A stretch of 16,376 nt of DNA, from positions 1 to 16,376 of the IMG/VR virus record IMGVR_UViG_2850784384_000009, one strand, 5' to 3'. Made by a program: the position numbers and the translations under genes. How positions within the stretch are numbered: position 1 is the stretch's first letter; every line of letters begins with the position of its first letter. A model generated the notes under the pieces. The model did not search any database. It was not told where the DNA came from and saw nothing but the letters and a program-made list of their open reading frames with translations. Source of the stretch: a virus. Its lineage: Duplodnaviria; Heunggongvirae; Uroviricota; Caudoviricetes. Of this stretch, positions 1 to 16,376 are shown piece after piece.

Positions 1-819
1 ATGTGTCAGGTATTTGGTGTATCCAGGAGCGGTTATTACAACTGGGTACAGCATGAACCCTCAGACAGAAAACAAAGTGATGAGCGGCTAAAACCGGAGA
101 TTAAGGTGGCACATATCCGCACTCGCGAAACATATGGAACCCGGCGGCTCCAGACGGAGCTGGCAGAGAATGGCATCATCGTTGGTCGTGACCGACTGGC
201 ACGTCTTCGTAAGGAGCTGAGGCTACGCTGTAAGCAGAAACGCAAGTTCAGAGCGACTACGAACCCGAACCACAATCTGCCAGTTGCGCCAAATCTGCTG
301 AACCAGACGTTCGCTCCTACAGCACCAAATCAGGTCTGGGTGGCGGACCTGACGTATGTTGCCACACAGGAGGGATGGTTGTACCTCGCTGGCATCAAAG
401 ATGTTTATACGTGCGAAATTGTCGGCTACGCCATGGGAGAGCGCATGACAAAAGAGCTGACAGGTAAAGCCCTGTTTATGGCGCTCAGGAGCCAGCGCCC
501 ACCTGCCGGGCTAATCCACCACTCTGATCGAGGTTCACAGTACTGCGCATACGATTACCGGGTCATACAGGAGCAGTTTGGTCTGAAAACATCAATGTCG
601 CGTAAAGGTAACTGTTACGACAACGCTCCGATGGAAAGCTTCTGGGGAACGCTGAAAAATGAGAGCCTGAGCCACTATCGTTTTAATAACCGGGATGAAG
701 CCATCTCAGTAATACGGGAATACATTGAGATTTTCTACAATCGTCAGCGTCGTCACTCTCGTCTGGGGAATATCTCCCCGGCAGCCTTCAGGGAAAAATA
801 TCATCAGATGGCTGCTTAA
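1..819 (+). CDS. IS3-family transposase OrfB (DDE integrase-type catalytic domain), IS600 ORF2
   Basis: 272-aa ORF beginning MCQVFGVSRSGYYNW; the same protein recurs on the minus strand at 4529..5230. Normally expressed as an OrfAB fusion by -1 frameshifting. Confidence 0.9.
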   Translation: MCQVFGVSRSGYYNWVQHEPSDRKQSDERLKPEIKVAHIRTRETYGTRRLQTELAENGIIVGRDRLARLRKELRLRCKQKRKFRATTNPNHNLPVAPNLLNQTFAPTAPNQVWVADLTYVATQEGWLYLAGIKDVYTCEIVGYAMGERMTKELTGKALFMALRSQRPPAGLIHHSDRGSQYCAYDYRVIQEQFGLKTSMSRKGNCYDNAPMESFWGTLKNESLSHYRFNNRDEAISVIREYIEIFYNRQRRHSRLGNISPAAFREKYHQMAA

Positions 820-861
820 AAAAGAACAAATGGTAGTGTCCGCTATTGCCAGTACACCTCA
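1..861 (+). mobile_element. IS600 (IS3 family) partial copy A: OrfB through the right inverted repeat; OrfA and left end lie upstream of the window
   Basis: OrfB protein matches the IS600 ORF2 sequence as I recall it. The element end ...gccagtacacctca at 861 is the inverse complement of the left-end motif tgaggt... seen at 15912 and at 5632 (minus). The window starts at the OrfB ATG. Confidence 0.8.
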
Positions 862-945
862 ACTTGTGAAGGAAATGGTACTCAGGGGGATTCCAGTACA
901 GGTGGTGCGCAATTAGCTATAAATGGCCTTAACGGTTCGTGCGCT

Positions 946-1569
946 TTGGTATTAAACAACCCATACTTTGAGGCTAATGCCGGGGGGGCAGACCTTGCTA
1001 TAGATAATACTGGGACGCGCCCTGTAACTGTGGTTATAAACGGTGGAAATTTTCATCGCGTGAGCAGTGCAAGATACACGCACACGAATATTCAAGTAAC
1101 AAGCTCAGGTGGGGGAAAAGTTACAGTCATACTCAACGGCACAACGTTCCAGAGCGCAGGGGATTATCAGCCAAGTGCAGAACGACCATACTGGATAACA
1201 GGAGCTAATTGCGAGGTAGTTGACATTGGGTGTGTTTTTACAGAAACAACCAGTAAGGTAACATCGGCTTCTGCATTGTCAGTCACACGCTCGGGAAAAA
1301 TTAACGCCAATGGTAGTATCGACGTTGCTACTGGTGTTTCATCGGTTAACGTGGTTTCTACAGGTGTGTATGATGTTAGCTTTTCTCATCCGCTCGCAGC
1401 AGTTGCTAGCGGTTATATTGTGCAGATAACACCTATATCTGCGCCTGATTCAGTTAGTTGTGATGTTACTTATATTGGCGTAGATACATTTAGGGTGACC
1501 CTGCGCAATACGCTTAGCGGGGCAGGAATCTCCAGTTCGTTTGCATTTAGCATTACCAGACTAATATAA
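946..1569 (+). CDS. 5'-truncated gene fragment of unknown function; possibly the C-terminal receptor-binding part of a tailspike or tail fibre
   Basis: ORF starts at a TTG, but the frame is open with no stop and no start codon back to the IS600 end at 862, so the native 5' part was removed by the IS. It occupies the tailspike position of Sf6/P22 gene order (tailspike, O-antigen modification gene, attP, int). The protein is Gly/Ser/Thr/Val-rich, which fits a beta-rich fold; no motif recognised. Confidence 0.35.
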   Translation: MVLNNPYFEANAGGADLAIDNTGTRPVTVVINGGNFHRVSSARYTHTNIQVTSSGGGKVTVILNGTTFQSAGDYQPSAERPYWITGANCEVVDIGCVFTETTSKVTSASALSVTRSGKINANGSIDVATGVSSVNVVSTGVYDVSFSHPLAAVASGYIVQITPISAPDSVSCDVTYIGVDTFRVTLRNTLSGAGISSSFAFSITRLI

Positions 1570-1577
1570 ATACATTC

Positions 1578-1609
1578 GCCGCCCCATTTGGACATATATG
1601 TAGGGCGGC
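1578..1609. terminator. Putative bidirectional stem-loop terminator between convergent genes
   Basis: gccgccc (1578..1584) and gggcggc (1603..1609) are perfect inverse complements. The 18-nt loop contains the palindrome acatatatgt. T-rich sequence follows on the plus strand. The long loop makes this uncertain. Confidence 0.3.
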
Positions 1610-1622
1610 TTATGTTTATTGT

Positions 1623-2795
1623 TTATTGATTGTTGTTTGTTAATGTGGGTATTAATTCTTTTACTAAAGTTGTGGTTTGTTTTGTTAATTTGATGAATGG
1701 CGTCTCTATTAATTTAAAAGTTAGGCATGATGTGAACGTAATAAGAAATGCAGTTGTGCTTACCAGTATGATAAATGTATTTTCAGTGTAATTATTAGGA
1801 ATAATCCACGTCATTAGGCAATAAAGGAATATCCCATGCAGAAGGTAAACGCTGTAGGTAGTTTCTCCTAGCTTTCTGGTTATATTTAATCTTAATATTC
1901 CATACAAATCACAACCTGATGCGATAATGATAAATGTTATTCCACAAAGAATCAGTGGTAGCGGTGCGTAAGTTGTTTTGAAATACGTCATTTCAAAAAC
2001 CATTATCGCAGTTATTATAATTGGTGTTACTTTTGCTTTGGCAATTCCATTGACTATCTTTGATTTATTTAGCAAAAATGCCAGGAGCCCAAAAAGAAAT
2101 GATGCTATGTGTATTTTACTGAAAAATAAAATGAAAACAAATAGCGATATTGCGCTAATCATAACCATGTAAATACTGACTTTTCTTTTTATGAGCGCGG
2201 AAATTACCGGAAGAGAAAAATAAAAGAACCATTCATATACAAGTGTCCATGTTACAGCGGCATTGATAGTAAATGAATCTTTTACGTCATTAATGTTCGG
2301 CATACCTAGCGCAGTGAATGGCAACCACTTCATTATTGACACAAAAAGCTCTTCTGTGGATACCTGCATTCTCCATCCAGACTTAAAACCTACAATGATA
2401 AAAATGAGACATAGGCTAACTATGAACATTGGGGTTAATCGTAGTAATCTTGATACATAAAGCCTTGTCCAGTCCTGATCTCCAGAGATAATCTTTGAAA
2501 AGAACAGATAACCAGTAATCATAAAAAAGAATGACACACCAACTTGGCCTAAATTTGCTAACAGATTTGATGAAGGTGCTTCCCATACTCCAGATGACAA
2601 GTATCCATTCCAAATTGCTGCGTGATGAATAAGCACGAAAATTGCTAAGAACCCCCGCATTCCATCTATTTGATTATTCCTGCCGTGCTCAACAAGATTT
2701 ATTGGGGAAATTTTATCAAATAACCCCACAGCTAATAACGACATCAATATCACGGATGTTATTAATAATAAACTGTTAATTTCAATCATATGCAT
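1623..2795 (-). CDS. Acyltransferase family 3 integral membrane protein; putative O-antigen O-acetyltransferase (Oac/OafA-like serotype-conversion protein)
   Basis: 390-aa ORF, strongly hydrophobic throughout (multiple predicted TM segments). N-terminal DGMRGFLAIFVLIHHA resembles the acyltransferase-3 signature (conserved R...H). Markedly AT-rich compared with neighbouring phage genes. Sits immediately next to the att core, as oac does in Sf6 and gtr does in P22. Confidence 0.75.
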   Translation of the reverse strand: MHMIEINSLLLITSVILMSLLAVGLFDKISPINLVEHGRNNQIDGMRGFLAIFVLIHHAAIWNGYLSSGVWEAPSSNLLANLGQVGVSFFFMITGYLFFSKIISGDQDWTRLYVSRLLRLTPMFIVSLCLIFIIVGFKSGWRMQVSTEELFVSIMKWLPFTALGMPNINDVKDSFTINAAVTWTLVYEWFFYFSLPVISALIKRKVSIYMVMISAISLFVFILFFSKIHIASFLFGLLAFLLNKSKIVNGIAKAKVTPIIITAIMVFEMTYFKTTYAPLPLILCGITFIIIASGCDLYGILRLNITRKLGETTYSVYLLHGIFLYCLMTWIIPNNYTENTFIILVSTTAFLITFTSCLTFKLIETPFIKLTKQTTTLVKELIPTLTNNNQ

Positions 2796-3083
2796 GCTCT
2801 ATTACGCAATTAAAATTTCTCCAAGTATACTGACTTTTAGTTAATGATCATATAGTTATGTGTAACTGATGAAACAAAACGGAGACACACCAAGCTTTGC
2901 ACTGGATTGCAAGGCTTTGTGCTCTTCTGTGAATGTGTGGCTATATGTTTGAAGATCGTTGTGCCGTATTTGTGACATATATATGGCAACATCATGCATC
3001 AACTTTCTGTTTGTGTCATCAACTATAGCTTAGTGAATGCGGTTAATGCTTGCTAAAACAGATAGTTATGATTGGTGCTACAG

Positions 3084-3129
3084 ATTCGTAATGCGAAGGT
3101 CGTAGGTTCGACTGCTATTATCGGCACCA
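3084..3129 (+). other. Phage attachment core: 3' 46 nt of a tRNA-Thr gene (thrW-type), attP-like
   Basis: attcgtaatgcgaaggtcgtaggttcgact(g)ctattatcggcacca matches the anticodon-loop-to-CCA end of tRNA-Thr(CGU) as recalled. Upstream sequence is not the tRNA 5' half, so no complete tRNA is present. One apparent T-stem mismatch relative to my recollection of thrW. Confidence 0.75.
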
Positions 3130-3143
3130 TTTAAATCAATAAG

Positions 3144-3592
3144 TTACACATCATTAGTACCTTCCTTATTTCTTGACTGGGACAAATTTGGGACCGATGG
3201 GTTCAGAATCAAGTCTATTTGCCGTGCGTGTTCGGTAAGGTGATTAGGTGCGAGGTGAGCATATCGACGAACCATTTCGATAGACTCCCAGCCTCCCATT
3301 TCCTGTAACACTGATAACGGGACTCCGGCTTGAACCAGCCAACTTGCCCAGGTGTGTCTCAAGTCGTGAAATCTGAAATCATCAATACCAGCCCGTCTCA
3401 GCGCCGCTTTCCAGGCTGTGTTTGCGTCATACCGCATCTTCCTTACTGTTGGCGCTTTCGTTCCGTCTGGTTTGGTACAGCTTTCCTTGTACACAAATAC
3501 CCAACGGTGATGATTTCCGATTTGTTTTTTCAATACGCGACATGCAGTATCATTCAGCGCAACGCCAATTGCGCGGTTTGATTTACTCTCTT
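3144..3592 (-). pseudogene. int: Tyrosine integrase, C-terminal catalytic fragment (P22-type Int), separated from its N-terminal part by IS600
   Basis: Contains [15 protein letters not shown] and VRRYAHL (the H-x-x-R and Y of the catalytic tetrad). The first 5 codons of the track ORF 3144..3608 come from the IS600 end. Reads on directly from the N-terminal fragment at 5633..6350. Confidence 0.85.
3590..3592. repeat. 3-bp target-site duplication (ctt) of IS600 copy B, left copy; right copy at 5633..5635
   Basis: ctt immediately flanks both ends of the element (3590..3592 and 5633..5635). Confidence 0.8.
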
Positions 3593-3775
3593 TGAGGTGT
3601 ACTGGCAATAGCGGACACTACCATTTGTTCTTTTTTAAGCAGCCATCTGATGATATTTTTCCCTGAAGGCTGCCGGGGAGATATTCCCCAGACGAGAGTG
3701 ACGACGCTGACGATTGTAGAAAATCTCAATGTATTCCCGTATTACTGAGATGGCTTCATCGGTAATGACTCCAAC

Positions 3776-4279
3776 TTACTGATAGTGTTTTATGTTCAGA
3801 TAATGCCCGATGACCTTGTCATGCAGCTCCACCGATTTTGAGAACGACAGTGACTTCCGTCCCAGCCTTGCCAGATGTTGTCTCAGATTCAGATTATGTC
3901 GCTCAATGCGCTGAGTGTAACGCTTGCTGATAACGTGCAGCTTTCCCTTCAGGCGTGATTCATACAGCGGTCAGCCATCCGTCATCCATACCACGACCTC
4001 AAAGGCCGACAGCAGGCTCAGAAGACGCTCCAGTGTGGCCAGAGTGCGTTCCCCGAAGACGTGCGCCACAACCGTCCTCCGTATCCTGTCATACGCGTAA
4101 AACAGCCAGCGCTGACGTGATTTAGCACCGACGTAGCCCCAATGTTCGTCCATTTCAGCGCAGACAATCACATCACTGCCCGGTTGTATGCGCGAGGTTA
4201 CCGACTGCGGCCTGAGTTTTTTAAGTGACGTAAAACCGTGTTGAGGCCAACGCCCATAATGCGTGCGCTGGCGCGACAT
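3776..4279 (-). pseudogene. insB: IS1 insB reading frame interrupted by an in-frame TGA
   Basis: Frame reads ...VVVWMTDG then TGA (minus-strand codon at 3971..3973) where canonical InsB has Trp (TGG). The frame then continues [27 protein letters not shown]... to the normal end. Confidence 0.75.
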
Positions 4280-4473
4280 CCGACGCCATTCATGGCCATA
4301 TCAATGATTTTCTGGTGCGTACCGGGCTGAGAGGCGGTGTAAGTGAACTGTAGTTGCCATGTTTTACGGCAATGAGAGCAGAGATAGCGCTGATGTCCGG
4401 CAGTGCTTTTGCCGTTACGCACCACGCCTTCAGTAGCGGAGCAGGAAGGACATCTGATGGAAATGGAAGCCAC
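4198..4473 (-). CDS. insA: IS1 InsA (transposition inhibitor / N-terminal part of InsAB')
   Basis: 91-aa [46 protein letters not shown]..., close to canonical InsA with a few substitutions. Confidence 0.9.
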
Positions 4474-4528
4474 GCAAGCACCTTAAAATCACCATCATAC
4501 ACTAAATCAGTAAGTTGGCAGCATTACC

Positions 4529-5230
4529 GGCTTCATCCCGGTTATTAAAACGATAGTGGCTCAGGCTCTCATTTTTCAGCGTTCCCCAGAAGCTTTCCAT
4601 CGGAGCGTTGTCGTAACAGTTACCTTTACGCGACATTGATGTTTTCAGACCAAACTGCTCCTGTATGACCCGGTAATCGTATGCGCAGTACTGTGAACCT
4701 CGATCAGAGTGGTGGATTAGCCCGGCAGGTGGGCGCTGGCTCCTGAGCGCCATAAACAGGGCTTTACCTGTCAGCTCTTTTGTCATGCGCTCTCCCATGG
4801 CGTAGCCGACAATTTCACACGTATAAACATCTTTGATGCCAGCGAGGTACAACCATCCCTCCTGTGTGGCAACATACGTCAGGTCCGCCACCCAGACCTG
4901 ATTTGGTGCTGTAGGAGCGAACGTCTGGTTCAGCAGATTTGGCGCAACTGGCAGATTGTGGTTCGGGTTCGTAGTCGCTCTGAACTTGCGTTTCTGCTTA
5001 CAGCGTAGCCTTAGCTCCTTACGAAGACGTGCCAGTCGGTCACGACCAACGATGATGCCATTCTCTGCCAGCTCCGTCTGGAGCCGCCGGGTTCCATATG
5101 TTTCGCGAGTGCGGATATGTGCCACCTTAATCTCCAGTTTTAGTCGCTCATCACTTTGTTTTCTGTCTGAGGGTTCATGCTGTACCCAGTTGTAATAACC
5201 GCTCCTGGATACACCAAATACCTGACACAT
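4529..5230 (-). pseudogene. IS600 OrfB transposase, 5' part, disrupted by the IS1 insertion (3' remainder at about 3635..3760)
   Basis: Identical to the plus-strand OrfB up to ...FNNRDEA, then the sequence runs into the IS1 end. The last residues of the track ORF 4502..5230 are IS1-derived. Confidence 0.85.
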
Positions 5231-5265
5231 CGCTTCAATGGGAAATTGTTGTCGCCATTGTTCGA

Positions 5266-5568
5266 TTAACGCGTATTTTTCAGCGACTCCTGTGCAAAAT
5301 ACGCTGTTGCTTTTTTTAATATATCTCGCTCAAGGCGAGCTTCATTTAACGCCTTACGCAGTTGCAGAATTTCAGATTCCAGTTCAGCCACCGTGCGGGA
5401 ACCAGGAGTACCGAGCCCTTTTCTGGCGGCGGTAACCCATTGTCCTAAAGTGCCTTCAGGAAGGAATAATCGGGAAGCGTCTTCACTGATCGAAAGTTGA
5501 TTTTCAAGAACCGTTCTGACAGCTTCGGCTTTGAACTCTTTAGAGTAACGTCGGGTTTTTCTGCTCAT
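5266..5568 (-). CDS. IS600 OrfA (helix-turn-helix / leucine-zipper transposase N-terminal protein)
   Basis: 100-aa ORF MSRKTRRYSKEFKAEAVRTVLENQLSISE..., matching IS600 ORF1 as recalled. Confidence 0.9.
   Translation of the reverse strand: MSRKTRRYSKEFKAEAVRTVLENQLSISEDASRLFLPEGTLGQWVTAARKGLGTPGSRTVAELESEILQLRKALNEARLERDILKKATAYFAQESLKNTR
5311..5317 (-). promoter_or_regulatory. Probable programmed -1 ribosomal frameshift slippery site (A7) for the IS600 OrfAB fusion
   Basis: ttttttt on the plus strand is A AAA AAA on the coding strand, near the 3' end of OrfA where the OrfB frame overlaps. This is the standard IS3-family arrangement. Confidence 0.5.
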
Positions 5569-5632
5569 TATTAGCTCCTTCTGATGCCATTCTATTTCAG
5601 GAAGGAGTGTCCGTTAAACTCAGGCTACCTCA

Positions 5633-6350
5633 CTTCCGGGTTTATCCATGCCACCCGGCGCTGCATATCTATTTGTTGCCATTCAAGGTTGATGATGTTC
5701 GAGCGTCTTAAGCCTGTTGCCAGTGCAAATTCAACAACAGACTTTAATGGCTCCGGACATTCATCAATCAGCCTTTGTGCTTCATGGGGCTCCAGCCAGC
5801 GGATCCGTTTATTCTTTGGTTGAGGCACTTTAATAATTGGTGCCTTATCCAGCATTTTCCATTCACGCTCTGCGGCTCTTAGTAGGGCCTTTATAAATGA
5901 AAGATGCGTAGCCTTCGTTGCAACGGACGCTGGTTTTGGCGTGTATTCTGGAACAGGTTTCCCTTTTTTTCTGCATGATTCTGCCCTGAGTTTCCAGTTT
6001 TCCTCATGACGCCGGTTCGTCATTTTCTGCATTGCTGAATAAATTTTTGATTCAGTAATGTCTCTTAGTTGTATTCCTGCGAAATGTTGAAGCCAGAATC
6101 CGATCCGGCTTTTGTCATCGTCCAGTGATTTTTTATGTGCTTTCTCTTCAAGCCACCTGACACACGCTTCCTCGAACGTTATATCAGGTATTTCACCAAG
6201 TTTGCTGACCCGCCATGCTTCAGCCTTTAGCTTGTCATGGAGTTCTGTCGCCTGCCTTTTGTCCTTTGTTCCAAGAGACTGTTTAAATCTTTTACCGTTC
6301 GGCAATGTGAAACTGGCGTACCATATTTCACCTCTGCGGAAGAGTGACAT
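5633..6350 (-). pseudogene. int: Tyrosine integrase, N-terminal fragment (P22-type Int), interrupted by IS600
   Basis: [46 protein letters not shown]... matches the P22 Int N-terminus as recalled. Contains TGLRRSNI (the first catalytic Arg). The last 3 codons of the track ORF plus the stop are IS-derived. Confidence 0.85.
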
Positions 6351-6428
6351 TTTCTTTCCTCTGTTATGCCATCACCCGCGCTCACCTGGACAGTATGCAG
6401 CGGAGACTGAAGAGCCGCAATGAAGTGG

Positions 6429-7597
<1,169 letters not shown>

Positions 7598-7669
7598 TGG
7601 AGCACCTGTGTTGTTCTGAGGTGAGCATATCACCTCTGTTCAGGTGGCCAAATTCAGTGTGCCACTTCA

Positions 7670-8824
7670 TGGATGCCTGTTGAGCAGGAAGCGCCAACCC
7701 AGACTGGCTGGGATTTAACTGGCAACGCAACCGGGATTCTGGAACTCTCCGTGAAGTGCAACATGGGCGATCCGGATAACGATTTCTTCGAGCTTCGTGC
7801 AGATGACCTGCGTGATGAGCGTTCTTACCGTCGCCGCATCCAGGCATCCGCCAAAAAACTGGCGAATAACATTGAGTCAGCGATTGCCAAACAGGCAACT
7901 GAAATGGGCTCGCTTGTTGTTCACGATACCCGCGCAATTGGTCCATCGACTGGCCTGCCTGGCTGGGATTTTGTGTCTGATGCAGAGCGACTGATGTTCT
8001 CCCGTGAGCTAAACCGCGACATGGGCATCAGTTACTTCCTGAACCCTGACGATTACCGCAAAGCAGGCCGCAACCTGGTAGATGGTGACATCTTCGGGCG
8101 CGTTCCTGAAGAAGCATATCGAAACGGTACTATTCAGCGTCAGATTGCTGGCTTTGATGAAATTCTTCGCTCACCGAAACTTCCGGCAGTTACCAAGTCA
8201 ACCGCGACTGGTGTAACTGTTTCTGGTGCGCAGAAGTTTAAGCCGCAGGCATACACCCTTGATACCGATGGTAACAAAGAGAACGTCGACAACCGTGTTG
8301 CAACGGTGACCGTATCCTCCACCACCGGATTTAAGCGCGGCGACAAAATCAGCTTCATTGGTGTGAAGTTCCTGTCTCAGATGGCGAAGAATGTGCTGAC
8401 TGATGACGCGACTTTCTCAATCACCCGTGTGATCGATGGTACTCACATCGAAATCACGCCGAAGCCGATTGCGCTGGATGACGCGTCACTGACAAAAGAA
8501 GAGAAGGCTTACGCTAACGTAAACACCTCTCTTGCTGATACCACTCCGGTAAACGTTCTGAACGTGGCAACAACCACCGCTAACGTGTTCTGGGCTGATG
8601 ACTCAATCCGCCTGCTGTCTCAGCCGATCCCGGTAACCCATGAACTGTTTGCTGGCATGAAAACGTCTTCCTTCAGCATTCCAGGTATTGGTGTTAACGG
8701 CATCTTCGCAACGCAGGGTGATATCAACACTCTGTCTGGTAAGTGCCGTATTGCTGTGTGGTATTCAGCATGTGCTGTACGACCAGAGGCAATTGGTGTT
8801 GGTCTGCCTAACCAGACCGCGTGA
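7670..8824 (+). pseudogene. P22-type major capsid (coat) protein gene, 5'-truncated at the IS911 boundary
   Basis: Reading frame from 7670 gives [18 protein letters not shown]... ending GVGLPNQTA, which aligns with P22 gp5 from about residue 46 to its C-terminus as recalled. No native start or ribosome-binding site; IS911 directly abuts. Confidence 0.85.
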
Positions 8825-8868
8825 TAACCAGAGGGAGCTTCGGCTCCCGTTTTTATCTGGAGACAAGC

Positions 8869-9093
8869 ATGACACACATGATCTTTCGTCATGGCGACAT
8901 GAAGAAGTGGAAAGGCGTTGGCTACGACTTTGAAATCGTGAAAGCCGAAGAGCTTCAGGAATATCTGGATGCTGGCTGGTTTTCACATCCTGATGACCTT
9001 TTGAAGGATGTTGCAGAGCCAGAAGAAAAACAGTGTAAAAAGCCTGGTCGAAAACCTAAGGCGGCAGCAGATGAACCTGACAACGAAGGGTGA
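8869..9093 (+). CDS. Small hypothetical protein between the coat and gp4-like genes
   Basis: ATG at 8869 preceded by ggaga. 74 aa with an acidic, Lys/Pro-rich C-terminus. Overlaps the gp4-like start by 23 bp. The track ORF start at 8821 overlaps the coat stop and is unlikely. Confidence 0.4.
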
Positions 9094-9571
9094 TTTAGTT
9101 CTTGCGGCATTACGTAAGCTCGGTGTTGCATCAAATGCCACGTTAACCGATGTCGAACCGCAGTCTATGGAAGACGGCGTCAACGACCTTGAAATGATGA
9201 TGGCTGAATGGCTTGGCGGTGATGCGTCACCTGGTATCAACGTTGGCTACATTTTTGCTGATGCAGATGTTGCTCCGGATCCGGGCGATGAGCACGGTTT
9301 ATCAAATAACGCTATCAATGCCGTCATTTTCAACCTTGCCTGCCGAATTGCTCCAGATTATGCGCTGGAAGCGTCTGCAAAACTTATAACCACTGCCAGA
9401 TACGGGAAAGAGCGACTCGTCAAACTGTCTGCAATGGACAGGGCAAAAGCAGCTAAATGTAAGTCCGGTTATCCAAACCGTATGCCTGTTGGTAGTGGTA
9501 ACCAGTTGGCGAAGTGGAATGGTTGGAATTACTTCCACCGAAAGGAACCTTGCGATAACGGGAGCGAATAA
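9071..9571 (+). CDS. P22 gp4-like head completion / portal-closure protein
   Basis: From the internal Met: [33 protein letters not shown]... is 166 aa and resembles P22 gp4 as recalled. The upstream 21 codons of the track ORF are probably not translated. Confidence 0.75.
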
Positions 9572-10989
9572 TGCCTATTCAGCAACTTCCGCTTATGAAA
9601 GGTGTCGGCAAAGACTTCCGAAACGCCGACTATATCGACTATCTGCCAGTGAATATGCTGGCTACACCCAAAGAAATCCTGAACAGCAGCGGATATCTTC
9701 GCTCATTCCCGGGCATTGCCAAACGTTCTGACGTGAACGGTGTATCTCGCGGCGTCGAGTACAACATGGCGCAGAATGCTGTTTATCGCGTGTGTGGCGG
9801 CAAGCTGTACAAAGGAGAAAGTGAAGTCGGTGATGTTGCCGGAAGTGGTCGTGTATCAATGGCGCATGGTCGGACATCACAGGCGGTAGGCGTTAATGGT
9901 CAACTGGTCGAGTATCGCTATGATGGCACGGTCAAAACCGTCTCAAACTGGCCTACAGACAGTGGATTCACTCAGTATGAGTTAGGTTCAGTTCGCGACA
10001 TTACGCGCTTACGTGGGCGTTATGCGTGGTCAAAAGACGGAACTGATTCATGGTTTATCACTGACCTTGAAGACGAATCTCATCCTGACCGTTACAGCGC
10101 ACAATATCGTGCCGAGTCTCAGCCTGACGGCATCATCGGTATCGGGACATGGCGAGACTTCATCGTCTGCTTTGGTTCATCGACTATTGAATATTTCTCC
10201 CTGACTGGCGCAACCACCGTTGGTGCCGCTTTGTATGTTGCACAACCATCGCTGATGGTGCAGAAAGGCATTGCCGGAACTTACTGCAAAACGCCATTCG
10301 CTGATTCGTATGCGTTTATCAGCAATCCGGCAACGGGTGCGCCGTCTGTGTATATCATCGACTCCGGTCAGGTGTCACCAATTGCCAGCGCGAGCATTGA
10401 GAAAATCCTCCGCTCCTACACTGCTGATGAACTGGCTGATGGTGTGATGGAATCGCTGCGATTTGATGCTCATGAGTTGCTGATTATCCACCTTCCGCGT
10501 CACGTCCTCGTGTACGACGCATCTTCAAGCGCCAATGGCCCACAATGGTGTGTGCTGAAAACAGGTCTGTATGACGATGTGTACCGCGCTATCGACTTCG
10601 TTTACGAAGGCAATCAGATAACGTGCGGCGATAAGCTGGAATCTGTTACCGGGAAACTGCAATTCGATATCAGCAGCCAGTACGACAAGCAACAGGAACA
10701 CCTGCTGTTTACTCCACTCTTCAAAGCGGATAACGCCAGAGTGTTCGACCTTGAGGTTGAATCGTCAACTGGCGTTGCGCAGTACGCCGACCGCCTTTTT
10801 CTCTCTGCAACCACTGACTGCATCAATTACGGGCGTGAGCAGATGATTGAGCAGAATGAACCGTTCGTTTACGACAAGCGTGTTTTGTGGAAGCGAGTAG
10901 GGCGCATCAGGAAAAATGTCGGCTTCAAATTGCGCGTTATCACGAAGTCACCTGTCACTCTGTCTGGCGCTCAGATAAGGATTGAGTAA
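9571..10989 (+). CDS. P22 gp10-like head completion / tail hub protein
   Basis: 472 aa starting [49 protein letters not shown], near-identical to P22 gp10 as recalled. Start overlaps the upstream stop (taATG). Confidence 0.85.
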
Positions 10990-11786
10990 TGGCTGATTCG
11001 AATCTCAATGTGCCGGTAATCATCCAAGCTACGCGGCTCGATACATCAGTCCTTCCACGCAATATCTTCTCGCAGTCGTATCTGCTTTACGTTATCGCAC
11101 AGGGCACTGATGTTGGTAACGTGGCTAACAAAGCCAACGAGGCCGGACAGGGCGCTTATGATGCACAGGTCAGGAACGATGAGCAGGATGTGATTCTCGC
11201 TGACCATGAGCAGCGAATTTCTGCTGCGGAAGCAACGCTTGTTAATCATGAGGAGCGAATCAGACAGGCAGAATCAACTCTTCAGGACCATGAAACACGA
11301 ATAGCTCAGAATGAAAGCGATATTTCGTCGCTTGACACAAGAGTTCAGTCGCTGGAGTCGCAGGTTTCAGACCATGAAACGCGCATCGATGCTCTGGAGT
11401 ATGCAACCACACGCAAGAAGTCAGAGGTTGTTTACTCTGGTGTATCTGTAACCATCCCGACAGCGCCGACCAACCTTGTTAGCCTGCTGAAAACGCTCAC
11501 ACCGTCATCCGGCTCGTTGGCACCATTCTTCGACACCGTTAACAACAAGATGGTTGTGTTCAACGAGAACAAAACCCTGCTCTTCAAGTTGTCGATTGTC
11601 GGCACGTGGCCCAGCGGAACCGCCAACAGGTCAATGCAGCTAACCTTTTCCGGCTCTGTTCCTGACACACTGGTCAGCAGTCGTAATGCGGCGACAACAA
11701 CCGACAACATCCTGTTAGCTACGTTCTTCAGCGTGGATAAAGACGGCTTTCTTGCCACAACCATCAAGATAATCGCGGAGCAGTGA
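10989..11786 (+). CDS. P22 gp26-like tail needle (cell-envelope penetrating plug) with an extended C-terminal domain
   Basis: Conserved N-terminus [41 protein letters not shown]. Central 14-residue periodic repeat (DHExRI...) typical of the trimeric coiled-coil core. About 125 aa of C-terminal domain beyond the helical core. Confidence 0.8.
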
Positions 11787-12241
11787 TGATTACATTCAAA
11801 CCAACGCGAAACATCGACCTGATAGAAGCAGTCGGAAATCACCCTGACATTATCGCCGGGAGCAACAACGGTGATGGATACGACTACAAACCTGAATGCC
11901 GTTACTTTGAGGTGAACGTGCACGGTCAGTTTGGCGGCATTGTTTACTATCAGGAGATTCAGCCGCTGACATTAGATTGCCACGCCATGTACCTGCCAGA
12001 GATTCGCGGCTTCAGCAAGGAAATTGGGCTGGCGTTCTGGCGATACATTCTGACTAACACCACCGTTCAGTGCGTAACATCGTTCGCTGCACGCAAATTC
12101 CGACACGGTCAGATGTACTGCGCAATGATTGGCCTTAAGCGTGTAGGAACCATCAAGAAATACTTCAAAGGCGTGGATGACGTGACTTTTTACAGCGCCA
12201 CACGCGAAGAACTAATCGACTTCCTGAATCACGGGAGATAG
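11783..12241 (+). CDS. gp14-position virion assembly/ejection-associated protein
   Basis: Intact 152-aa ORF immediately after the needle gene with an ATGA start/stop overlap. Assigned by synteny with P22 (26, 14, 7, 20, 16). Confidence 0.55.
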
Positions 12242-12243
12242 CC

Positions 12244-12852
12244 ATGTTATATGCATTTAAGCTGGGCAGAAAACTGTGCGGCGAGGAACCTTATTGCCCT
12301 GAAAAAGGCGGGAAAGGTGGCAGTTCTGATAAAAGCGCAAAGTATGCAGCAGAAGCCCAGAAGTATGCTGCAGACCTGCAAAATCAGCAGTGGCAGACGA
12401 TCATGAAAAACCTTGCTCCGTTCACGCCTCTTGCGGAGCAGTATGTTAACCAGCTTCAGAACCTTTCCAGTTTAGAAGGTCAGGGGCAGGCACTTAATCA
12501 GTATTACAACTCTAAGCAGTATAAAGACCTTGCAGGGCAGGCGCGTTACCAGAGTCTTGCTGCTGCGGAGGCGACGGGTGGACTTGGTTCGACAGCCACA
12601 AGCAATCAACTGGCTACGATCGCGCCGACACTCGGTCAGTCTTGGTTATCAAATCAGATGAGCAATTACAACAATCTGGCAAACGTTGGGCTTGGTGCGC
12701 TGCAAGGTCAGGCAAACGCCGGGCAGACGTACGCCAACAACATGAGCAGCATTGCACAGCAAAGCGCAGCTCTTGCCAGCCTTTTGGGAACATCAACGCC
12801 TTGGGGCGCTGGTATTGGTGCTGGTATCGGATTGCTTGGCTCGTTGTTTTAA
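12244..12852 (+). CDS. gp7-like ejection (internal virion) protein
   Basis: 202-aa ORF MLYAFKLGRKLCGEEPYCPEKGGKGGSS... with a Gly-rich hydrophobic C-terminus. Assigned by synteny and N-terminal resemblance. Confidence 0.6.
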   Translation: MLYAFKLGRKLCGEEPYCPEKGGKGGSSDKSAKYAAEAQKYAADLQNQQWQTIMKNLAPFTPLAEQYVNQLQNLSSLEGQGQALNQYYNSKQYKDLAGQARYQSLAAAEATGGLGSTATSNQLATIAPTLGQSWLSNQMSNYNNLANVGLGALQGQANAGQTYANNMSSIAQQSAALASLLGTSTPWGAGIGAGIGLLGSLF

Positions 12853-12861
12853 GGGGTAATC

Positions 12862-14193
12862 ATGGCTACTTGGCAAGGAACAAACGGCGGATTGTTGGCT
12901 GGTATCGGCGGCGTCAACTCAAACGCTCCGAGCGTAAATGACATCGGCAATACGCTTCAGCTTATCAGGCAGAACAATGATATTGAGCGTTCAGGCGCTA
13001 ACAATGTTGGGCTGACTGCTTTGCAAGGTCTTTCAGGTATTGCGGGTGTTTTTCAGCAGGAAAAGCAGGCTCAGCGGCAGAAAGAATTTCAGCAGGCGTA
13101 CGCTAATGCTTATGCGTCTGGTGATCGCGGTGCTTTGCGTCAGTTGGCTACTCAATATCCAGACCAGATTGAATCCGTTCGTAAAGGCATGGGATTCATT
13201 GATGAAGAGCAGCGTAATTCTATCGGCACCTTAGCGGCTGGCGCACGCCTTGCGTCATCGTCTCCAGAAGCAATGCAATCATGGCTGCAAAACAACGCCG
13301 GTGAGTTAGCTCGTGTTGGCGTTAATCCTCATGACGTCGCTCAGATGTACCAACAGAACCCGCGGCAGTTCGGCGAATTTGTCGATCACCTGGGGATGAA
13401 CAGTCTCGGGCCCGAAAAATACTTTGACCTACAGGATAAAATGCAGGGTCGCCAGGTTACCATGCGCGGTCAGGATCTGGATTCGCAAACCGCCGCTCGG
13501 AATCAGGCAATCACAATGCGCGGACAAGATATCCAGGCGAATTTAGGTCAGCAGCGCATTAATCTGGACGCAGAAACAAACCGCATTAACAACGAAAATA
13601 AGCGCCTTGACCGGATGCTATCAGCAGAAACTAACGACCTGAAGCGCCAGGAAATACAGAGCCGCATAGCAGCCAACAACCAGCAGTTGCAGCAGAAGCA
13701 GCAAGCGCTAAATGATGGCTACAAAGACGGCATCAACACCCTCACAACCAGCATGTTCACTCTGAACGATATCGTTAGTTCTCCTTCACTTAAGAGCATT
13801 ACAGGCTTACGTGGAGTAATCCCCAACGTTCCAGGCTCACAGGCTGCAGACACTCAGGCACGACTTGATACCTTTAAATCACAAGCATACCTGACAGCGG
13901 TTCAGGCCATGCGAGGCATGGGCGCACTTTCTGATGCCGAGGGCAAAAAGCTCGACCAGGCTGTTGGTTCGCTGCAGAACTCGCAGAGCGAGGAGTCCTT
14001 TCGTCGCAACGCTGGCGTCATCCTGAACACGCTCAACCAGAAGCGTAATGAGGCGGTTGGTAAGTACGTTCAGCAAAACGGTATCAAGCGAGTGGAAGCG
14101 CCTCAGGCTTCTATAGATTACCTGAAGCAGCACCCCGAGCTGTCAATCGACTTCATTAATCGCTACGGATATCTTCCATCTTTGGGGCAGTAA
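12862..14193 (+). CDS. gp20-like ejection (internal virion) protein
   Basis: 443-aa ORF, Gln/Asn-rich with internal TMRGQD repeats. Assigned by synteny. Confidence 0.6.
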   Translation: MATWQGTNGGLLAGIGGVNSNAPSVNDIGNTLQLIRQNNDIERSGANNVGLTALQGLSGIAGVFQQEKQAQRQKEFQQAYANAYASGDRGALRQLATQYPDQIESVRKGMGFIDEEQRNSIGTLAAGARLASSSPEAMQSWLQNNAGELARVGVNPHDVAQMYQQNPRQFGEFVDHLGMNSLGPEKYFDLQDKMQGRQVTMRGQDLDSQTAARNQAITMRGQDIQANLGQQRINLDAETNRINNENKRLDRMLSAETNDLKRQEIQSRIAANNQQLQQKQQALNDGYKDGINTLTTSMFTLNDIVSSPSLKSITGLRGVIPNVPGSQAADTQARLDTFKSQAYLTAVQAMRGMGALSDAEGKKLDQAVGSLQNSQSEESFRRNAGVILNTLNQKRNEAVGKYVQQNGIKRVEAPQASIDYLKQHPELSIDFINRYGYLPSLGQ

Positions 14194-15924
14194 ATGGCTA
14201 ATTACCGTGATTTGTTAGAGCAGGCTGGCGCACGTTACGGTGTGCCAGAAGGGTTGATGACTGCACTGGGTGCCAAGGAGTCTTCTTACAACCCTGCCGC
14301 AGTAAGCTCCGCCGGGGCTGTAGGATTGACTCAGGTCATGCCTGGGACATGGCGTGATATGGGTTATACCGATGAGCAAATGCAAAACCCCGAATATCAG
14401 GCTGACGCTGGCGCGCGCTATCTGGCAAAGATGTACCAGCAGTTTGGTAACTGGCGTGACGCTCTTCAGGCTTATCACGACGGTCCCGGCAACGTTATGA
14501 AGGCAAAGCGTGGTGAATATACGCCAGGACCTGAAGGCCGCGGTTACGTTGATGATCGCTTTGCTCAATGGGCTGGTGACCCGGTGACAGACTCAACAGT
14601 CGAACAGCGCGCCACCTCTGCAAAGGTACATCCTCAGCAAGACCCTAACAACCCGTTTGCACAACTGGAAGTACAGTCATCCGAACAAGTATCGGCATCA
14701 GGTGTGCAGTCAGACCCAAATAATCCATTTGCTCAGATTGAGCAGCAGGCAGCCAGTCAGCAGCCACCTCAACCCGTAAGTTCTGTCGCACCGAAACCTG
14801 TTCAGCAACAAACAGTTAATCAGGCCAATAATGCACCAACACGGGAAGAACCATCATTGATGCAACAAGCTGGCGATTGGCTCACTGGTGGTCAAAGTGC
14901 AGGGCAAATTGCAGAACAGGCTGGTCGTGGTCTGGTAAACATACCATTTGACGTATTGCAGGGTGGCGCAAGTCTGATTAATGCAATCAGTCAGGGGCTT
15001 GGGGGGCCAAAAGTATTGGATGATGTTTATCGTCCAGTAGACAGACCGACAGACCCCTACGCGCAAGCTGGAGAGTCAATAGGCGGTTATCTTGTTCCTG
15101 GAGCAGGTGTAGCTGGAAACATGGTCATTGGTTCTCTCGCTGACGCGGCGAATCAACGGGGTGATTTTGCCGAAAATGCCGCTATTAATGCCGGACTTAG
15201 CATTGCTACGCATGGCCTGATAAATGGCGTTACCCGTGGTGTTCGTGGTGCATCAAATATAATTAGTGGCAATAAAACATCTGCACAGAGAGCGACCACT
15301 GCGCCAACAGAAACATCACCATTCTCCGGTGATGCCGCTGCAGCAACAAATCCTGCGGTTCATGCCGCAGAGGCAAGAGTAGCACAAGGTGTACCAATGA
15401 CGCCTGCGACGAAGAACCCAGAGGAAGTCGTTCGCACAGTAGCAGCACAAAAAAGGCCAAATCTCGCTTCATCGCTTGATGAACTAGATATCAATCCTCA
15501 GGCTGAAGTTCTGGAGTCTGCTGAAAGGCTTAATGTTGATTCATTACTCCCTTCACACTTTTCCGGGAACGAGCAATACAAGGCAGTTGAGCAAGCAATC
15601 AAGTCCCGTGCGGGTTCTGCTCTACAGGTGCAGGAAAATGAAGCAATCAGGCAGCTAGCACAGGGCGCGGGTGAGATAATTGATCGCGTTTCCGGTGCAA
15701 AAGATGCTCTTGGTATGAGCGACAAGTTTATTGATACGGTCAATGGAAGAATGTCTGCGCTGATGAAACGAAGCGACCAGCTTTATCGCAATGTTGAAAA
15801 GGCGATGCCTGCAGGTGCAAAAATTGATGCGCCATCAACAAGGTCAATGCTCAAACAGGTGGCAGAAGATCTTGGCGGGATGAAAAACCTTGACCCTATT
15901 GAAAAGAGAGTTGAGGTAGCCTGA
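14194..15924 (+). CDS. gp16-position ejection protein with N-terminal lytic transglycosylase (SLT) domain; 3' end replaced by the IS600 terminus
   Basis: N-terminal [28 protein letters not shown] plus AYHDGPGNV are SLT-family motifs including the catalytic Glu-Ser. The last 4 codons (VEVA) and the stop lie inside the IS600 left end, which starts at 15912. Confidence 0.7.
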
Positions 15925-15995
15925 GTTTAACGGACACTCCTTCCTGAAATAGAATGGCATCAGAAGGAGCTAATAATGAGCAGAAAAACCCAACG
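15912..15995 (+). mobile_element. IS600 left-end fragment (inverted repeat plus first 7 codons of OrfA), interrupted by IS629
   Basis: tgaggtagcctgagtttaacggacactccttcctgaaatagaatggcatcagaaggagctaataatgagcagaaaaaccc is identical to the inverse complement of 5553..5632. It diverges at 15996 where IS629 begins. Confidence 0.85.
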
Positions 15996-16376
15996 TGAAC
16001 CGCCCCGGGAATCCTGGAGACTAAACTTCCTGAGAAAGAGGTAAACAGGATGACTAAAAATACTCGTTTTTCCCCCGAAGTCCGTCAACGGGCAGTCCGT
16101 ATGGTTCTGGAAAGTCAGGGCGAATATGACTCACAATGGGCGACAATTTGTTCCATTGCCCCAAAGATTGGCTGTACGCCGGAGACTCTGCGTGTCTGGG
16201 TTCGCCAGCATGAGCGGGATACCGGGGGCGGTGATGGAGGGCTCACCACCGCTGAACGTCAGCGTCTGAAAGAGCTGGAGCGTGAAAATCGTGAACTGCG
16301 CCGCAGTAACGATATCCTTCGCCAGGCTTCCGCTTATTTTGCGAAGGCGGAGTTCGACCGCCTCTGGAAAAAATGA
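15996..16376 (+). mobile_element. IS629 (IS3 family), left end and OrfA; continues beyond the window
   Basis: Starts tgaaccgccccgggaatcctggagac, the IS629 terminus as recalled, followed by OrfA. Confidence 0.8.
16050..16376 (+). CDS. IS629 OrfA
   Basis: 108-aa [53 protein letters not shown]...AEFDRLWKK. The window ends at its stop codon. Confidence 0.85.

Follow-up and report, generated by a model that had tools for sequence, protein, structure and literature searches.

The window analysed here, by which we mean the whole stretch of 16,376 nucleotides (nt) in the Caudoviricetes record IMGVR_UViG_2850784384_000009 of IMG/VR, carries a junction at which the O-antigen acetyltransferase gene oacB and a phage integrase gene (int) stand on either side of a 3' fragment of the tRNA-Thr gene thrW. 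The DNA is Shigella flexneri chromosome. Positions 4194-16376 (12.2 kb) are 100% identical to the complete chromosome CP034060.1 and positions 1-7669 are 99.9% identical to CP130061.1. Exact copies of the OacB and gp16 proteins were found in many complete S. flexneri chromosomes, including those of strains 2457T (AE014073) and NCTC1 (LM651928), and the near-identical chromosomes run on past the window, into adrA-proC at one end and psiF-phoA-ampH at the other. The features around the junction, including insertion sequences (IS) and the parts of the phage attachment (att) site, are the following:

1..861, plus strand: 3' two-thirds of an IS600 that runs off the left end of the window (inverted repeat with 3592-5632; annotated IS600 in E. 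coli matches)
862..1569, plus strand: C-terminal 235 codons of a P22-like tailspike gene, cut by IS600 (match to the tail protein of phage Sf101)
1623..2795, minus strand: oacB, an intact O-antigen 3/4-O-acetyltransferase gene encoding 390 amino acids (aa) (Pfam Acyl_transf_3)
2796..2873, no strand: region upstream of oacB, common to Sf101 (nucleotide match to Sf101)
2874..3083, plus strand: thrW-type attP P arm ("H type"), assigned to the P22-like oacB phage (lambdoid attP arms)
3084..3129, plus strand: att core, the 3' 46 nt of tRNA-Thr (thrW) (pattern search and alignment)
3130..3591, minus strand: P' arm and 3' part (149 codons) of an SfII-family int (phage matches, Pfam)
3592..5632, minus strand: IS600 within int, with a nested IS1 at 3761-4528 (target duplications, inverted repeat)
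5633..6350, minus strand: 5' part of int, the N-terminal ~238 codons (Pfam, collinearity with SfII)
6227..6420, minus strand: 3' part of xis from an Sf-family prophage, cut by IS911 (collinear with SfII to about position 26128 of that record)

The thrW 3' 46-mer ATTCGTAATGCGAAGGTCGTAGGTTCGACTCCTATTATCGGCACCA had a single match in the window, at 3084-3129 on the plus strand, with 45 of 46 nt identical and G in place of C at 3114; none of 200 shuffles matched (0/200). ARAGORN called no tRNA in the window and Rfam returned no match in 2950-3250 even at E<=1, partial tRNAs included, so that the core was established by direct pattern search and alignment. When the K-12 proA-thrW region was aligned, identity began exactly at 3084, and upstream of this position the window tracked the attP arm of phages HK542 and HK446 and not the 5' half of the tRNA. 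An earlier reading made from the letters alone (the sequence-only reading) had placed a 46-bp tRNA-Thr fragment at 3084..3129 between an acyltransferase gene and the 3' end of int, and the 45/46 match together with the Pfam assignments of both genes bears this out. It had also named two findings that would overturn its view, chromosomal DNA to the left of the core and a tRNA 5' half revealed by alignment: the DNA on the left is a phage P arm, and the 5' half is absent. The interval that it gave, 862-3608, fails at its right end, which falls inside the inverted IS600 starting at 3592/3593. The site thus has two properties of an attP, namely a core that matches the 3' end of the target tRNA gene and phage DNA on both sides of it with the tRNA 5' half missing. 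The third property, P and P' arms that come from one phage genome and are cognate with the adjacent int, is lacking. The C>G change at 3114 lies at a T-stem position of thrW and was seen, among the fetched loci, only in the window and in CP130061; the core is canonical (46/46) in most related strains, and one locus (L010) has another single change.

Position 862 is the first base past the IS600 copy, and the segment 862-1569 corresponds to residues 346-580 of the 580-aa Sf101 tail protein (77% aa identity, E=2e-126; 91.5% nucleotide identity over this region), which upholds the suggestion of a tailspike-like fragment beyond oacB. The product of 1623-2795 contains the Pfam domain Acyl_transf_3 (PF01757, E=2.8e-32) and is identical to OacB of S. 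flexneri 2457T, whose gene has been functionally characterised (PMC8973906). Domain and identity together qualify it as an acyltransferase-3 (AT3) O-antigen acetyltransferase, OacB; the oacB product of Sf101 is itself annotated "O-acyltransferase B". Window positions 2796-2927 are 98.5% identical to Sf101 17635-17766, and the Sf101 homology ends at 2927, short of the thrW-type P arm. Seven lambdoid phages sequenced from virions (HK542, ECP1, mEp213, mEp043, HK75, HK446 and mEpX2) have, directly left of their annotated attP core, DNA that is 93-98% identical to the P arm of the window (2874-3083). Identity was highest with HK542, ECP1 and mEp213 (97-98%, with HK542 at 98%) and was 95% with SfX. 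A P22-like prophage of E. coli (L021) has a canonical attR, with the order tailspike...P arm-core-bacterial DNA, whose P arm is likewise 95% identical to that of the window. Chromosome CP026871 (locus L011) shows the natural order of P22 in one contiguous stretch, with the genes from portal to gp16, a nested IS600::IS629, the C-terminal part of the tailspike gene, oacB and then the P arm. The left flank of the core is in that locus the right end of a prophage, here called A, and continuous with the late operon of A. On these relationships the left side is identified as the right end of a P22-like, Sf101-related oacB phage.

An element of about 60 bp at 2865-2927 is common to Sf101 and the H-type P arms and recurs at 81% in SfII, whose annotation calls it a putative rho-independent terminator. 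Several unrelated coliphage and Salmonella phage genomes have this element beside conversion genes as well, and its conserved role may be to insulate the conversion gene from int. A simple terminator scan did not call this element, and a promoter and terminator scan of 1500-3200 did no better than on shuffles.

The right side of the core has other relatives. Core, P' arm and int are 97.6-98.6% identical to SfII, SfV, SfI, SfIV and phi458, and all high-identity phage matches on the int side begin exactly at 3084; the same segment is only 77% identical to HK542 and HK446. The integrase gene is present in two parts. Profile positions 61-171 of Pfam Phage_integrase lie in 3144-3591 (minus strand) and positions 1-58 in 5633-6350, and the 154-aa open reading frame at 3144-3608 borrows its start codon from the IS600 that begins at 3592/3593. 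A 3-bp duplication flanks this IS600 and int picks up again at 5633, so that the gene is split by IS600::IS1 rather than truncated. A truncated int bounded by a composite transposon had been a candidate and was dropped once the N-terminus was located at 5633-6350. When the IS is left out, core, int and xis' of the window align collinearly with SfII (98.1%). In L011 this collinearity runs on across a simple IS911 insertion into SfII_32/33 (98.8%), where the segment is 98.9-99.5% identical only to SfIV, SfV, SfII and VIT_AJPSC (an SfIV-identical record); the next-best records reach at most 95% and none is named as a P22-like phage. The int gene is uninterrupted in L001-L003 and L006-L009. The order in L001 and L003, loci of the type found in serotype 2a strains (2a-type), is [SfII 24072->16968: gtrB-gtrII-tnp-oacD-TAP-fibre']-IS600-[26193->24835: xis'-int-core], so that int is there the left end of an internally deleted, collinear SfII prophage. 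The right flank of the core is therefore collinear with the genome of a second prophage, B, and forms its int end. We identify this side, from the same kind of comparison, as the int (attL-side) end of an SfII/SfV/SfIV-type gtr prophage.

Note that the 2a strains (L001-L003, L006-L010; 1-7103) keep the block fibre'-TAP-oacD-transposase-gtrII-gtrB-gtrA at 99.7% identity to phage SfII, with one IS600 replacing everything from the tail fibre round to xis. The block of 2457T is inverted relative to that of the other 2a strains.

A second junction of reciprocal composition was found in 2457T and CP026871. There gtrA is followed by the SfII P arm, the core, an H-type P' arm and a 97-codon int fragment that is 98.6-98.8% identical to the SfX/HK542 int and 73% identical to that of SfII. 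Among the phage records fetched or matched, none joined an H-type P arm to an S-type (SfII-family) int with both at high identity. The reciprocal junction lies at about 6650-7103 in L009 (2457T) and at about 2075-2526 in L004, and its int fragment is cut by IS600. At L004 the reciprocal junction is the same but the type-specific gtr gene is another one, a hint that cassettes may be exchanged while the outer arms stay constant. The 44 bp that separate IS600 from IS629 at this locus gave no informative match.

Tandem lysogens of the lambda/P22 type have the order attL-prophage-attP-prophage-attR. When a second phage enters at an occupied core, the internal junction takes the composition P(A)-core-P'(B) and is at once the attR of A and the attL of B. 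The window junction has this composition and would therefore combine the topology of an attP with the nature of a hybrid seam. The sequences show that the two arms belong to different phages, and we consider it probable that the oacB-core-int junction is the hybrid seam of two different thrW-core prophages lying side by side, that is, a heterologous tandem lysogeny. By analogy with the lambda/P22 integration paradigm, the P22-like oacB phage would have contributed the attR-side right end (late genes, tailspike, oacB and its own P arm) and the SfII/SfV/SfIV-type gtr phage the attL-side left end (P' arm, int, xis and early-left genes), with the second phage integrating at a core already occupied by the first and so creating the hybrid internal junction. 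The sequence-only reading had proposed a P22/Sf6-type attP. Its topology and its order of tailspike, conversion gene, core and int stand, but the site is not the attP of one genome, as the arms differ in owner. Of the three explanations which that reading offered (a tandem double lysogen, an episomal element and IS-mediated capture), the tandem double lysogen comes closest, amended to two different phages, P22-like oacB and Sf-family gtr. Given that the lysogeny would be heterologous, the twofold read depth that had been suggested as a check is not expected.

The remainder of the window shows how far the locus has moved from such a beginning. To the right of xis lie:

6421..7669, minus strand: IS911, without target duplication (flanks ...CAA / IS911 / TGG...)
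7670..15911, plus strand: P22-like late genes coat', gp4, gp10, gp26 needle, gp14, gp7, gp20 and gp16' (Pfam)
15912..15995, plus strand: IS600 nt 1-84, the other piece of the left-end IS600 (repeat comparison, related loci)
15996..16376, plus strand: 5' end of IS629, left inverted repeat (IRL) and orfA (98.9% identical to annotated IS629)

The IS600 in int is flanked by a 3-bp duplication, CTT, and the IS1 nested in it by a 9-bp duplication, GGCTTCATC; because it has its own duplication, this IS600 represents an independent insertion. IS1 within IS600 within the integrase gene makes three levels of nesting. The int of CP026871 contains this IS600 but lacks the IS1, and int is intact in most strains. 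The two IS600 copies of the window (1-861 and 3592-5632) are mutually inverted. In related chromosomes (L005 and L001-L010 show this flank) the left copy is interrupted near its 5' end by an IS629, which abuts adrA. The arrangement in L011 (11719-14291) is simpler, with both IS600 pieces flanking a single nested IS629 at IS600 nt 84 and the duplication ACG/ACG. Relative to L011, the flanks of IS629 are swapped in the window lineage and in all 2a-type loci (L005 and L015 were also compared), giving adrA...ATC/IS629/ACG-IS600-tailspike' on the adrA side and gp16-IS600(1-84)-ACG/IS629/ATC...psiF on the psiF side. An empty site rebuilt from the outer flanks with a single ATC was covered over at least 80% in 5423 of 5426 E. 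coli genomes, and in the best-matching ones it was found at full length and 100% identity at the 3' end of psiF. The swapped 3-bp duplications are the mark of homologous recombination in which the IS629 carried by the phage paired with one that resided in the psiF-adrA spacer of the chromosome.

In the window lineage, adrA and psiF border the remnant, and an IS629 copy stands at each of its ends in direct orientation. In the NCTC1-type loci psiF-phoA-ampH comes after the late genes, with relative order and orientation unchanged from the window, at record coordinates of about 240-260 kb, as compared with about 327-332 kb for oacB-adrA in 2457T. This suggests that in the 2a strains the psiF-phoA-ampH segment lies, in inverted order, between the two prophage halves, a comparison drawn across different genomes. 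Because it lacks a target duplication, the IS911 at 6421-7669 is a recombinant joint between xis' and the coat gene.

The decay of both prophages through IS activity can be read from the sequences themselves. An IS600 replaced the stretch from the 3' end of gp16 to the middle of the tailspike gene, an IS629 landed in that IS600, another IS600 in int and an IS1 in the latter, and an IS911 joined xis' to the coat gene. Recombination of the phage-borne IS629 with the copy in the psiF-adrA spacer brought the junction beside adrA and off thrW. As the most economical path we infer a thrW stack, an IS629 inversion that yields the 2a arrangement and an IS911 inversion that places the late genes beside int. 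The unrecombined ACG/IS629/ACG nest persists in L011. The intact oacB is the selected cargo. The junction is predicted to have no current function in the window, as int is disrupted by IS600::IS1 and the core is mutated.

Several points weigh against stacked prophages at thrW. The array is not at attB now and its block lies between adrA and psiF, which we attribute to the IS629 recombination. No fetched locus showed either outer end of such a stack, be it an intact thrW leading into the P22-like phage's own int or a distal attR. All the S. flexneri loci fetched either lack the left part of the P22-like prophage or have it cut by IS911. The inversion history was pieced together from loci of different genomes and not read from one whole-genome alignment. 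Lambdoid phages are mosaic, moreover, and a single phage may natively carry this combination of arms.

This last possibility corresponds to a true attP of one mosaic phage, left by a homologous tandem double lysogen. The gene order fits the vegetative P22/Sf6 map, and late genes occur both upstream of the junction (L011) and downstream of it (the window), as in attL-phage-attP-phage-attR. However, the two arms have different nearest relatives, the int side is collinear with the Sf-family gtr phages for more than 2 kb and the rest of an SfII prophage is present in the 2a strains, while the late genes are joined to xis' through an IS911 without duplication, a rearrangement joint and not a natural continuity. 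We regard this explanation as very improbable. An excised circle fares better, although we hold it doubtful. The P22-like prophage alone, or a double with the Sf-family phage, would have been excised by Int/Xis, regenerating an attP-type site, and the tailspike-deficient circle would have been rescued through the IS629 of the psiF-adrA spacer. The remnant between adrA and psiF indeed has a direct IS629 copy with swapped duplications at either end, its order is that of the phage, circularly permuted and opened at an IS, and a double circle would also account for both reciprocal hybrid junctions. Yet L011, which has the same junction with an unrecombined IS600::IS629 and late genes upstream, would need extra steps of excision and reintegration, the positions in NCTC1-type loci and 2457T fit a simple IS629 inversion of a thrW-resident stack, and the window lineage would need a single large IS911 deletion that removed the gtr cluster. 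Circle capture gives the same final topology for the window. Owing to the extra steps demanded by L011 and the NCTC1-type arrangement we rank it second, and provisionally so, because the outer ends of the stack were not reached. A combined proposal, in which the reciprocal junctions act as a docking site or a double prophage was rescued as an excised circle via IS629, appears unlikely to us. In its docking-site version, oacB-P_H-core-P'_S-int and gtrA-P_S-core-P'_H-int' may form a standing site, with gtr phages excising and re-integrating between constant arms. If true, this would explain the identical junctions across strains with different gtr type genes, and the locus would be a site of serotype-cassette exchange.

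The role of IS elements as carriers of the whole unit was also weighed. IS600 copies flank 862-3591, and the literature uses the word "transposon-like" (PMC4159516, PMC8973906), which would agree with an IS600 composite transposon that brought oacB, core and int as a unit to the adrA site. The copies are inverted, however. On the right, IS600 inserted simply into int: it has a CTT duplication of its own, and int goes on past it. On the left, the nested IS629 links IS600 to the piece next to gp16. No single duplication brackets the unit, and its immediate neighbours are the same in 20 of 20 related loci, with no second target site, so that neither hallmark of a composite transposon, a bracketing duplication or an occurrence at different sites, was observed. 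Such a transposon is highly improbable, even more so than a single-phage attP. The IS-mediated capture envisaged earlier does explain the present position and the cut genes, though it is not needed for the junction. An episomal or replicating phage genome, or an assembly artefact, shares with the window only the attP-like order and deserves next to no credence: 12.2 kb are 100% identical to CP034060, the near-identical complete chromosomes continue into adrA and psiF-phoA, which disposes of the episome once proposed, and the phage has no early, replication, lysis or packaging genes, its tailspike, coat and int genes being broken.

The locus is the published S. flexneri oacB serotype-conversion locus and the mechanisms are classical. 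The oacB block upstream of adrA has been described as a "transposon-like structure" flanked by an integrase and IS elements (PMC4159516, PMC4206707, PMC8973906), a description that these citing papers credit to Wang et al. 2014, J Bacteriol 196:1525. The window agrees with the 2457T structure in its identical OacB and in the order IS600/tailspike fragment-oacB-thrW core-int beside IS600/IS629 and adrA. It departs from the published structure in having an int split by IS600::IS1, flanking IS600 copies in inverted orientation, P22-like late genes 4 kb away across the IS911 joint and psiF on the far side. PMC4159516, PMC4206707 and PMC8973906 do not describe the oacB junction as a two-phage hybrid. 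The block is on present comparisons an IS-eroded prophage seam and not a demonstrated transposition unit.

Comparison with known phages points the same way for each arm. Sf101 (KJ832078), a P22-like phage with oacB, has the tailspike C-terminus, oacB and its upstream region in the same order and at 91.5-98.5% nucleotide identity, but unlike the window it has an unrelated int and a 13-bp attP for sbcB (PMC4159516). The adrA-linked oacB was suggested to derive from a sbcB-resident Sf101 (PMC4159516); mobilisation from such a source is not supported, the arm on the oacB side being a thrW-type P arm. The attP-int-xis module of SfII, SfV, SfI and SfIV is collinear with the window at 98% in core, P' arm, int and xis, whereas the P arm of these phages follows gtrA and is of different sequence. 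Conversely, the thrW-type attP of HK542, HK446, mEp213, ECP1 and SfX shares the P arm (93-98%) and an identical core, but the P' arm and int of the HK542/HK446 group match at only about 77%, and it is that int type that appears at the reciprocal junction of 2457T. Like tandem lysogens, the window has an internal core junction with phage DNA on both sides; it differs from them in that the two prophages are not the same and in that the array was broken and moved off attB by IS recombination. The source of the adrA-linked oacB would then be a thrW-integrating P22-like phage stacked against an Sf-family gtr phage, and not a transposon. The matter is of some practical weight, as oacB sets O-factor 9 of the S. 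flexneri O-antigen and bears on the choice of vaccine antigens and on resistance to phage Sf6. More generally, a chromosomal site that looks like an attP may be a hybrid seam between prophages, and swapped IS target duplications reveal how the seam moved; no new biology is implied.

The late genes gave Pfam matches to P22_CoatProtein, P22_Tail-4, Phage_stabilise, Phage_tail_NK, Inj_translocase and SLT and are 94-97% identical to those of E. coli P22-like prophages. IS911 abuts this operon at strain-specific points, namely in terminase', portal' and coat', at the start of gp26 and at its 3' end (joints compared: window 7669/7670; L013; L012, L014 and L016; L011; L038), and the DNA beyond IS911 varies by strain as well (xis', a type VI secretion system (T6SS) island, other). 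In most strains the same IS911 end faces the late genes, and this suggests, from the pattern of joints, nested adjacent deletions arising from one ancestral IS911. In L038 the IS911-type transposase was called on the opposite strand, which implies at least one further rearrangement. A gp4 search directed toward the left end of the prophage returned mostly E. coli prophages and a single S. flexneri locus, again L038, in which the left part of the P22-like prophage is already cut by IS911. Matches to the gp16/IS600 joint in IMG/VR lay only on contigs of 4-10 kb. An E. coli match (H49) that seemed to span the window proved to be a P22-like prophage at the sbcB/dacD site and has no bearing on the att question, and 16050-16376, once considered as a tailspike N-terminus, is orfA of IS629.

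Other minor changes affect the late genes. The coat gene lacks about 48 N-terminal codons. In-frame deletions shorten gp26 needle (10989-11786) to 265 aa, against 282 in other S. flexneri copies, and gp7 (12244-12852) to 202 aa, against 230, both between short direct repeats, as seen from overlapping alignment ends. Finally, gp16 ends within IS600 at 576 aa, as compared with 612-707 aa in the fetched E. coli prophages.

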